Of a DNA stretch of 64,000 nt, positions 14,367 to 15,033 are shown one piece after another. Source of the DNA: Escherichia phage SD2; the sequence record PQ821640; one strand, written 5' to 3'. Position 1 is the stretch's first letter, and each line of letters begins with the position of its first letter. The translations under genes and the position numbers were made by a program. The notes under the pieces were generated by a model. That model was not told the DNA's origin. It made no database searches and worked only from the letters and a program-made list of their open reading frames with translations.

Positions 14367-14798
14367 ATGATGATACTGACTATGTTAATAAACCTACTGA
14401 AGAATAAATGGGTTAGGTATTTTGTTCTTATTATAGCATTGTTTGGTGGTTTGTATGTTGGTTTGAACAAATTACACGATGATGTGTATGCACAAGGTTA
14501 CAACGCAGGTGTTGCTAAACAAGAACAAATATTACAACAAAACCAAATTAAAGCAAAACAGCAATTCGATATTTTACAAGCAAAAGCAGATTCAGAAAGA
14601 TCTAAATTGAATGAAAAAATTCATTCATTAACGAAAGAAAAAAATGATCTTCTTACACAATTGGATAAGAAGAGTAATAACATAACACAAGAGAGAATAG
14701 ATTATGCGAAAACATCTTCTGGCGCTATGTCTTGTTTTAGCCCTAATGATGACGGGTTGCGCATCATCAACAACAGCTTCCCAGCCTCTACTGATTGA
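14367..14798 (+). CDS. i-spanin-like protein (Rz-like)
   Basis: N-terminal transmembrane helix YFVLIIALFGGLYVGL then long coiled-coil region; o-spanin-like ORF embedded in its 3-prime end. Confidence 0.55.
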   Translation: MMILTMLINLLKNKWVRYFVLIIALFGGLYVGLNKLHDDVYAQGYNAGVAKQEQILQQNQIKAKQQFDILQAKADSERSKLNEKIHSLTKEKNDLLTQLDKKSNNITQERIDYAKTSSGAMSCFSPNDDGLRIINNSFPASTD

Positions 14799-15033
14799 GC
14801 AGTGTAAAGCTGTAGCAACACAACAAATAAAAGCCCCTGATTCTGTTAGTATGGAGAAACCATCTACGCCTGTTCTATACACTCCTAATCAAATAAAGAA
14901 AGGAGTTACAAGATCAGAGGTAGTTGATAATCAAACTTTAAACAACGCTTTGTGGGAAAAAGATAGGATAAAACTTATCAGTTTGCAAAACTATATTAAA
15001 ACATTACAAAGCGAAGGAATAATTTCTAATTAG
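14704..15033 (+). CDS. o-spanin-like outer-membrane lipoprotein (Rz1-like)
   Basis: Signal peptide with lipobox LALMMTGC; starts inside the i-spanin ORF in another frame. Confidence 0.55.
   Translation: MRKHLLALCLVLALMMTGCASSTTASQPLLIEQCKAVATQQIKAPDSVSMEKPSTPVLYTPNQIKKGVTRSEVVDNQTLNNALWEKDRIKLISLQNYIKTLQSEGIISN

Follow-up and report, generated by a model that had tools for sequence, protein, structure and literature searches.

Introduction

The closest described systems to the gene pair reported here are the spanins of phages phi92 and phAPEC8, whose i-spanins and o-spanins are listed together as an 'Overlapped' family in Tables 3 and 4 of a survey of spanins (Kongari et al. 2018, BMC Bioinformatics 19:326; PMC6139136). 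That survey distinguishes three arrangements of spanin genes, embedded, overlapped and separated, and groups systems into a family on the basis of 40% or more identity across 40% or more of the periplasmic domain (PMC6139136). It describes Rz and Rz1 of phage lambda as a periplasm-spanning complex with homodimer disulfides that acts by fusing the inner and outer membranes, and phage T4 provides the established precedent for lysis genes that are not clustered (PMC6139136). Recent genome papers on the genera concerned mention a spanin complex, and our literature search found no experimental study of the phi92/phAPEC8 spanin family.

The working criteria of the 2018 survey for a two-component spanin reportedly comprise an i-spanin with an N-terminal transmembrane (TM) domain, N-in/C-out topology and a helical or coiled-coil periplasmic domain; an o-spanin with a lipobox, a lipid-attachment Cys and no Asp at +2; and adjacency of the two genes. 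Disruption of the outer membrane is said to need the pair, and the pair to complement lambda Rz(am) Rz1(am). Periplasmic Cys residues for intermolecular disulfides reportedly occur in 507 of 528 spanin systems.

Here we describe a pair of genes from Escherichia phage SD2 (sequence record PQ821640), found in a 64,000-nucleotide stretch to which we refer as the window. Family matches, conservation and the literature lead us to read the pair as an overlapped two-component spanin from a phi92-like myophage of the genus Justusliebigvirus, with a probability of roughly 90%. The pair is an ordinary one and already known, having been catalogued in 2018 and annotated in database records.

Results

Relationship of the window to other phage genomes

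The window is collinear, in reverse orientation and at 97-99% identity, with the genome of phage vB_vPM_PD06 (hereafter PD06; NC_052653.1), such that positions 1..64000 correspond to PD06 108034..45222. Three patches, at 12918..13359, 38613..40854 and 51607..52571, do not align to PD06. The last two fall in tail-fibre/tailspike genes whose flanks are 97-99% identical to PD06, and, judged by this pattern, they are probably receptor-binding module swaps. Around the spanin genes, the sequence is 98.5-99.3% identical to that of many Escherichia phages of the genus Justusliebigvirus (Stephanstirmvirinae, phi92 group). The segment 13600..17200 is also 98.7% identical to four unannotated 'Campylobacter phage' records (MG065639, MG065656, MG065645 and MG065689) that give C. 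jejuni as the host, a label that looks doubtful.

Upstream of the block that contains the spanin and terminase genes, 15 tRNA genes are clustered at 10089..13525 (+). An HNH endonuclease ORF at 12787..13356 (+), recognized by Pfam HNH and by PHROG 23251 (E 2.5e-50), lies inside this cluster (tRNA-Met, 12845..12923, to tRNA-Ile, 13450..13525). Because 12918..13359 has no counterpart in PD06, the stretch looks like a homing-endonuclease insertion.

A predicted i-spanin anchored by one N-terminal helix

The first gene of the pair, an ORF at 14367..14798 (+), encodes a protein of 143 amino acids that matches PHROG 4297 ('Rz-like spanin') with an E value of 2e-40, residues 2-140 aligning to profile positions 1-129 of 130. 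The protein is laid out as a short N-terminus, a basic patch (KNKWVR), a membrane helix, a long periplasmic helix and a C-terminal tail of 23 residues that contains Cys123. Its single hydrophobic segment, residues 15-33 (WVRYFVLIIALFGGLYVGL; codons 14409..14465, +), has the maximum Kyte-Doolittle mean over 19 residues, 1.84. Because the basic residues of KNKWVR lie on the N-terminal side of this segment, the positive-inside rule predicts an N-in/C-out topology, so that both the N-terminal TM domain and the orientation of an i-spanin are predicted here.

In an AlphaFold model of the monomer, built from the single sequence, residues 14-120 form one continuous helix, in which pLDDT exceeds 90 from about residue 21 to residue 110, whereas the last 23 residues, including Cys123, are disordered. 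The predicted periplasmic domain is thus dominated by helix, as expected of an i-spanin. A preliminary description of this DNA, made from the sequence alone, had called the product a membrane-anchored coiled-coil protein; the anchor and the helix agree with our models.

A predicted lipoprotein encoded in the +1 frame

The second ORF, at 14704..15033 (+), encodes a predicted lipoprotein of 109 amino acids as precursor and 91 when mature, and matches PHROG 1267 (also 'Rz-like spanin'; E 2e-20), with residues 1-108 aligned to profile positions 2-92 of 119. The N-terminus, MRKHLLALCLVLALMMTGC, has a basic start and an uncharged hydrophobic core that leads into M-T-G-C, with Cys19 as the predicted lipid-attachment site and Ala at +2. 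The lipobox codons for M16-T17-G18-C19 (ATG ACG GGT TGC) occupy 14749..14760 (+). This N-terminus passes a PROSITE-PS51257-like pattern and the looser lipobox pattern [ILMFTV][^REKD][GAS]C, which is reportedly that of the 2018 spanin survey; it fails the strict consensus [LVI][ASTVI][GAS]C because position -3 is Met. The looser patterns therefore predict that the signal is of the signal peptidase II type, with a lipobox and a Cys for lipid attachment, and the residue at +2, Ala and not Asp, is compatible with sorting to the outer membrane.

The predicted mature o-spanin has 91 residues, of which five are Pro and one, Cys34, is a further Cys. Both Cys34 and Cys123 of the i-spanin are conserved, so that each subunit would have a periplasmic Cys. 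An AlphaFold model based on an alignment of six sequences assigns low confidence to residues 1-36 and confidently predicts a helix at residues 70-103 (pLDDT >85).

Family assignment

Neither protein matched Rz or Rz1 in a Pfam scan at E values up to 1, which returned only sub-threshold coiled-coil noise. An NCBIfam scan likewise reached no spanin model, P2_Rz1 (NF038368) scoring 12 bits (E 0.18) against a cut-off of 27 bits. Given that no Pfam or NCBIfam model for Rz/Rz1 or LysC matched, the assignment draws on topology, gene arrangement and the computational PHROG labels.

Measured against the published family threshold, the pair belongs with phi92 and phAPEC8: the i-spanin is 97.2% identical to the phi92 gp117/gp118-region products and 49.6% identical to its phAPEC8 counterpart, over 92-100% of its length, and the o-spanin is 67% identical to that of phAPEC8 over 86% of its length. 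As in that family, the genes overlap directly upstream of the large terminase gene. We found no difference of substance; SD2 contributes another isolate of the genus. In tblastn searches, the i-spanin and the o-spanin were each found in 135 phage records, so that a pair known from two genomes in 2018 is now represented in about 135. In GenBank, the pair is annotated as an i-spanin (or "Rz spanin") and an o-spanin in EmilieFrey, ESCO5, W22, 92CQ and EF1-1, and the first four of these carry the label 'o-spanin' on the gene equivalent to 14704..15033.

More sensitive searches extended the family only slightly. An exhaustive profile search with the o-spanin against 1.84 billion cluster representatives returned only 17 relatives and no bridge to any other named spanin family, and a word-indexed homologue search with the same protein gave six close matches only. 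When viral structures were searched by fold with the o-spanin model, the matches were confined to its own family; the named o-spanins of Xylella phages Sano and Cota appeared with E values above 1, which is not evidence. Thus, the pair is Rz/Rz1-like in its predicted working and, by sequence, a small family of its own.

Spanin function is a prediction here, the genes head a structural block by the terminase instead of lying beside the endolysin, and no curated Rz/Rz1 or LysC model matched, all of which could fit an inner-membrane protein and an outer-membrane lipoprotein with a role outside lysis, such as superinfection exclusion or receptor masking (compare T5 Llp or the Cor lipoproteins) or service as an envelope-spanning infection device. 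We consider such a role improbable. Known exclusion lipoproteins work singly, without an overlapped type II membrane protein bearing a long helix, whereas gene pairing, conserved C-terminal regions and one periplasmic Cys in each protein together make up the signature of a spanin. Moreover, Gram-negative phages normally need a spanin, and neither the PD06 annotation nor the lipobox scan of the window offered another candidate. The inclusion of the family in a curated spanin survey (Kongari et al. 2018; PMC6139136) also favours the spanin reading.

Conservation of the two proteins

As a test against chance, we scanned all six frames of the entire 64 kb for lipoprotein-like N-termini, with the same criteria throughout and block shuffles as the control. 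Three were found, compared with a mean of 0.33 in the shuffles, and the two other than the o-spanin are antisense within a + strand gene. ORF length by itself is no evidence, as an off-frame ORF of 97 amino acids is present at 16360..16653 inside the terminase gene.

Four diverged relatives in the Stephanstirmvirinae, phAPEC8, ESCO5, Citrobacter phage Tr1 and Klebsiella phage KP13-16, have the same overlapped pair. Their o-spanins are 34-67% identical to that of SD2, and the i-spanins of Tr1, phAPEC8 and ESCO5 about 50%. Their lipoboxes read LMMTGC, LMMMGC, LVMTGC and LMVSGC, and all four phages keep one Cys in the i-spanin tail and the second Cys of the lipoprotein. The lipobox Cys is invariant in all listed relatives of full or nearly full length. 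Thirteen of the 17 relatives from the profile search were examined: the lipobox Cys is present in all but P0011, where it is missing because the gene call begins downstream of it, and the second Cys is present in 13 of 13. The residue at +2 in relatives is S, A, N, T, G, V or K and never Asp, which holds for every lipobox-bearing sequence among the 13. Most of the 13 also have the C-terminal motif NNxLWxxDRxK...LQxY.

These data bear on the notion that 14704..15033 is a chance off-frame ORF and that only the 143-amino acid protein is made. The window does contain off-frame ORFs of about 100 codons, as in the terminase gene, and gene callers often truncate or miss 14704..15033. However, 235 nt of this ORF are shared with no other gene and occupy the interval up to the terminase start, and its product is better conserved than the i-spanin relative to phAPEC8 (67% versus 50% identity), matches a PHROG over nearly its whole length, and keeps both Cys and motif in distant relatives; lipoprotein-like N-termini are, as noted, rare by chance. 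The chance explanation is thus already contradicted by the conservation data, and we give it very little weight.

Gene arrangement and dual coding

The two genes share 95 nt (14704..14798, +), which encode the C-terminus of the i-spanin in frame 0 and the signal peptide and first mature residues of the o-spanin in frame +1. From the i-spanin stop at 14798, the o-spanin gene runs on for 235 nt to 15033. The large terminase gene (15042..17126, +), an ORF annotated as 'terminase large subunit' in PD06 and J-01, follows 8 nt downstream of the o-spanin stop. Since only 95 nt are common and the o-spanin ends 235 nt after the i-spanin stop, the pair belongs to the overlapped class, of the P2 LysB/LysC type, and the o-spanin gene is not wholly inside the i-spanin gene; this adjacency is kept in the four diverged relatives.

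The preliminary description had placed an i-spanin/o-spanin pair upstream of the terminase, as two ORFs within 14367-15033, one of them a lipoprotein ORF with an MTGC lipobox in another frame. All of this agrees with the present results, from the 143- and 109-amino acid products and the predicted Cys19 to the family matches, conservation and literature that identify the pair. Its further claim of a classic embedded Rz/Rz1 architecture does not survive: like Rz1 in Rz, the o-spanin gene does begin in the +1 frame within the i-spanin gene, but the coordinates refute a lambda-type pair, Pfam Rz/Rz1 models failed to match, and both proteins differ in predicted structure from those of lambda (see Discussion), so that we assign it next to no probability.

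A stretch that is read in two frames is expected to be unusually constrained, and the identity profile has its peak within 14704..14798: nucleotide identity to Tr1 and phAPEC8 is 0.71-0.84 in two bins inside the overlap, compared with 0.24-0.71 in bins wholly outside. The codons of the lipobox region, ATG ATG ACG GGT TGC, are the +1 reading of N-D-D-G-L in the i-spanin, which lies within a conserved motif, CF[SA]PNDDGL. Because the same bases encode both, the unusual Met-rich lipobox may have been fixed by dual coding with this tail motif.

The position of the pair at the head of a terminase-portal-capsid block suggests that the spanins are co-expressed late with the structural genes. A scan of 13300..15300 for promoters and terminators gave consensus matches no commoner than in shuffled sequence; the one suggestive combination, a terminator-like hairpin at 13639..13657 and then a promoter-like site at 13681..13709 (+), lies ahead of the first gene of the spanin/terminase block. 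Also in this region, an ORF of 48 amino acids at 14261..14407 (+), annotated as gp130 from 14291 in PD06, overlaps the start of the i-spanin gene as well as a DUF7230 gene before it (14158..14331), and is possibly spurious.

The other lysis genes

The spanin genes adjoin neither an endolysin nor a holin. The PD06 annotation has no endolysin within the part collinear with the window, in keeping with the preliminary description, which had recognized none and had proposed a search of the rest of the genome. In the near-identical PD06, the endolysin, gp075, is encoded at 42506..43015, which maps to a position about 2.2 kb past the right end of the window, on the opposite strand and about 51 kb from the spanins; the window lacks an endolysin because it ends short of this PD06-type position. 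The PD06 endolysin is a Pfam Hydrolase_2 (SleB-like) enzyme with a hydrophobic N-terminus ending in VVAQA/EA, from which we expect that it is probably exported by Sec, with this N-terminus serving either as a signal that is cleaved off or as a signal-anchor-release (SAR) domain. The genes beside it encode no membrane protein, and three small genes that follow it were rejected as holins since they have no hydrophobic segment.

In the PD06 annotation and the window, no convincing holin adjoins the spanins or the endolysin. As the preliminary description had it, the only holin candidate in the window lies about 26 kb from the spanins: this gene, at 41012..41257 (+), just before a baseplate wedge gene, encodes 81 amino acids with one hydrophobic segment by threshold, a second by eye and a charged C-terminus, and its match in PHROG (1322) is labelled only 'membrane protein'. 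It agrees in size with one of two small proteins, of 61 and 81 residues, that were proposed as candidate holins in a paper on BME3, a phage of the same genus with the same dispersed situation (PMC12210895). Two further candidates were rejected. The gene at 1528..1848 (-), 'hol-like chemotaxis' by PHROG 18076, encodes an acidic, coiled-coil-like protein with no hydrophobic segment, and a 42-amino acid PD06 product labelled "lysis inhibition; accessory protein" has none either.

Among the tail-fibre genes, a gene at 44944..45285 (+) encodes a 113-amino acid protein called 'lipoprotein' in PD06 and in PHROG 15210. It lacks a lipobox; its N-terminus has a hydrophobic helix at residues 6-25, the remainder is apparently helical and charged, and the protein has a weak match (8.8e-4) to another 'Rz-like spanin' PHROG (739).

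With the endolysin located, the lysis genes of a PD06-type genome are, by its sequence, dispersed, as the preliminary description had supposed, because about 51 kb still separates the endolysin from the spanins. Such dispersal is not new, given both T4 and the BME3 paper on the same genus.

Discussion

By analogy with lambda Rz/Rz1 and T4 PseT.3/PseT.2, the SD2 pair most likely comprises the genes with which the phage would break the host outer membrane at lysis. The 143-amino acid i-spanin would be anchored in the inner membrane by its one N-terminal helix, N-in/C-out, and would project into the periplasm a helix of about 87 residues that ends in the flexible 23-residue tail. The 109-amino acid o-spanin would be exported, lipidated at Cys19, processed by signal peptidase II and delivered to the outer membrane, its 91 mature residues forming a poorly ordered linker and then the conserved C-terminal helix. 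The C-terminal regions of the two subunits would bind each other to give a complex that spans the periplasm through the peptidoglycan mesh, and the single conserved periplasmic Cys of each subunit would probably form homodimer disulfides. Once the endolysin had destroyed the peptidoglycan, the complexes would be free to cluster and change shape, and the clustered complexes would fuse the inner and outer membranes, thereby removing the last barrier to phage release.

Several points of this scheme have close parallels in P2. As with LysB and LysC, the 3' end of the i-spanin gene contains, in the +1 frame, the start of the o-spanin gene, which continues beyond the i-spanin stop, and a type II inner-membrane protein is paired with an outer-membrane lipoprotein. 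By sequence, in contrast, membership of the LysC family is not reached, as the NCBIfam score shows. The lysis genes of P2 are clustered, unlike those described here.

The SD2 pair would resemble lambda Rz/Rz1 in topology, in forming homodimer disulfides and a complex that spans the periplasm with its subunits bound through their C-termini, and in fusing the two membranes once the peptidoglycan has been broken down. The differences are in gene arrangement and predicted structure: Rz1 lies wholly inside Rz, whereas 95 nt are common in SD2; a linker connects two coiled-coil domains in Rz, whereas the SD2 i-spanin is predicted as one uninterrupted helix; and mature Rz1 is an unstructured protein of 40 amino acids with 10 Pro, whereas the mature SD2 o-spanin has 91 amino acids, 5 Pro and a C-terminal helix. 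Since the i-spanin is predicted to be a hinge-less helix of about 105 residues and the o-spanin is long, with a conserved helix of about 34 residues, a geometry unlike that of lambda can be proposed, in which the fold-back would occur between the subunits, at the junction of the i-spanin tail and the o-spanin, and not within the i-spanin (CC1-linker-CC2). We offer this as a speculative idea that is unlikely to be correct.

T4 resembles SD2 in being a large virulent myophage with unclustered lysis genes, and its o-spanin is likewise larger than that of lambda, with a predicted C-terminal helix (PMC6139136). Its PseT.3 and PseT.2 genes differ in being separated, with no overlap, and we detected no sequence similarity. 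The Cys residues are also distributed differently, T4 having none in the periplasmic part of the i-spanin and two in the o-spanin (PMC6139136), compared with one in each SD2 protein. In the 2018 survey, pseT.3/pseT.2 were put to the complementation test in a lambda Rz(am) Rz1(am) lysogen (PMC6139136).

Against this background, only three points would count as mildly unusual, namely an i-spanin predicted to have no hinge, an o-spanin that is long and predicted to be helical, and a lipobox that may have been fixed by dual coding, and the pair has little significance beyond annotation, the family having been catalogued and scattered lysis genes having a precedent in T4.

The practical value of the analysis lies in correcting that annotation, because starts are called too late both in RefSeq and in most metagenome gene calls. 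In RefSeq PD06 (3840..4199 for the i-spanin and 4150..4434 for the o-spanin in the local numbering of segment L001), the i-spanin is begun at an internal TTG, 14439, inside the membrane helix, a start that we reject since it would cut that helix. The o-spanin is begun at ATG 14749, the Met just before the lipobox, so that the signal peptide is lost, and the product is named "hypothetical protein". This internal Met is also where most metagenome gene calls for the family start. Truncated starts of this kind were described as an annotation fault in the 2018 survey (PMC6139136). For the i-spanin, a start at 14367/14370 is supported by the N-terminal extension, which is conserved in Tr1 and KP13-16 and absent from phAPEC8, and a shorter start at 14382 is a possible alternative. 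The late starts remove the membrane helix of the i-spanin and the signal peptide of the o-spanin, and the o-spanin is therefore usually left as a "hypothetical protein". Where phi92-like and phAPEC8-like phages are to be used in phage therapy, their spanin genes would be correctly annotated with starts equivalent to 14367 (or 14370) and 14704.
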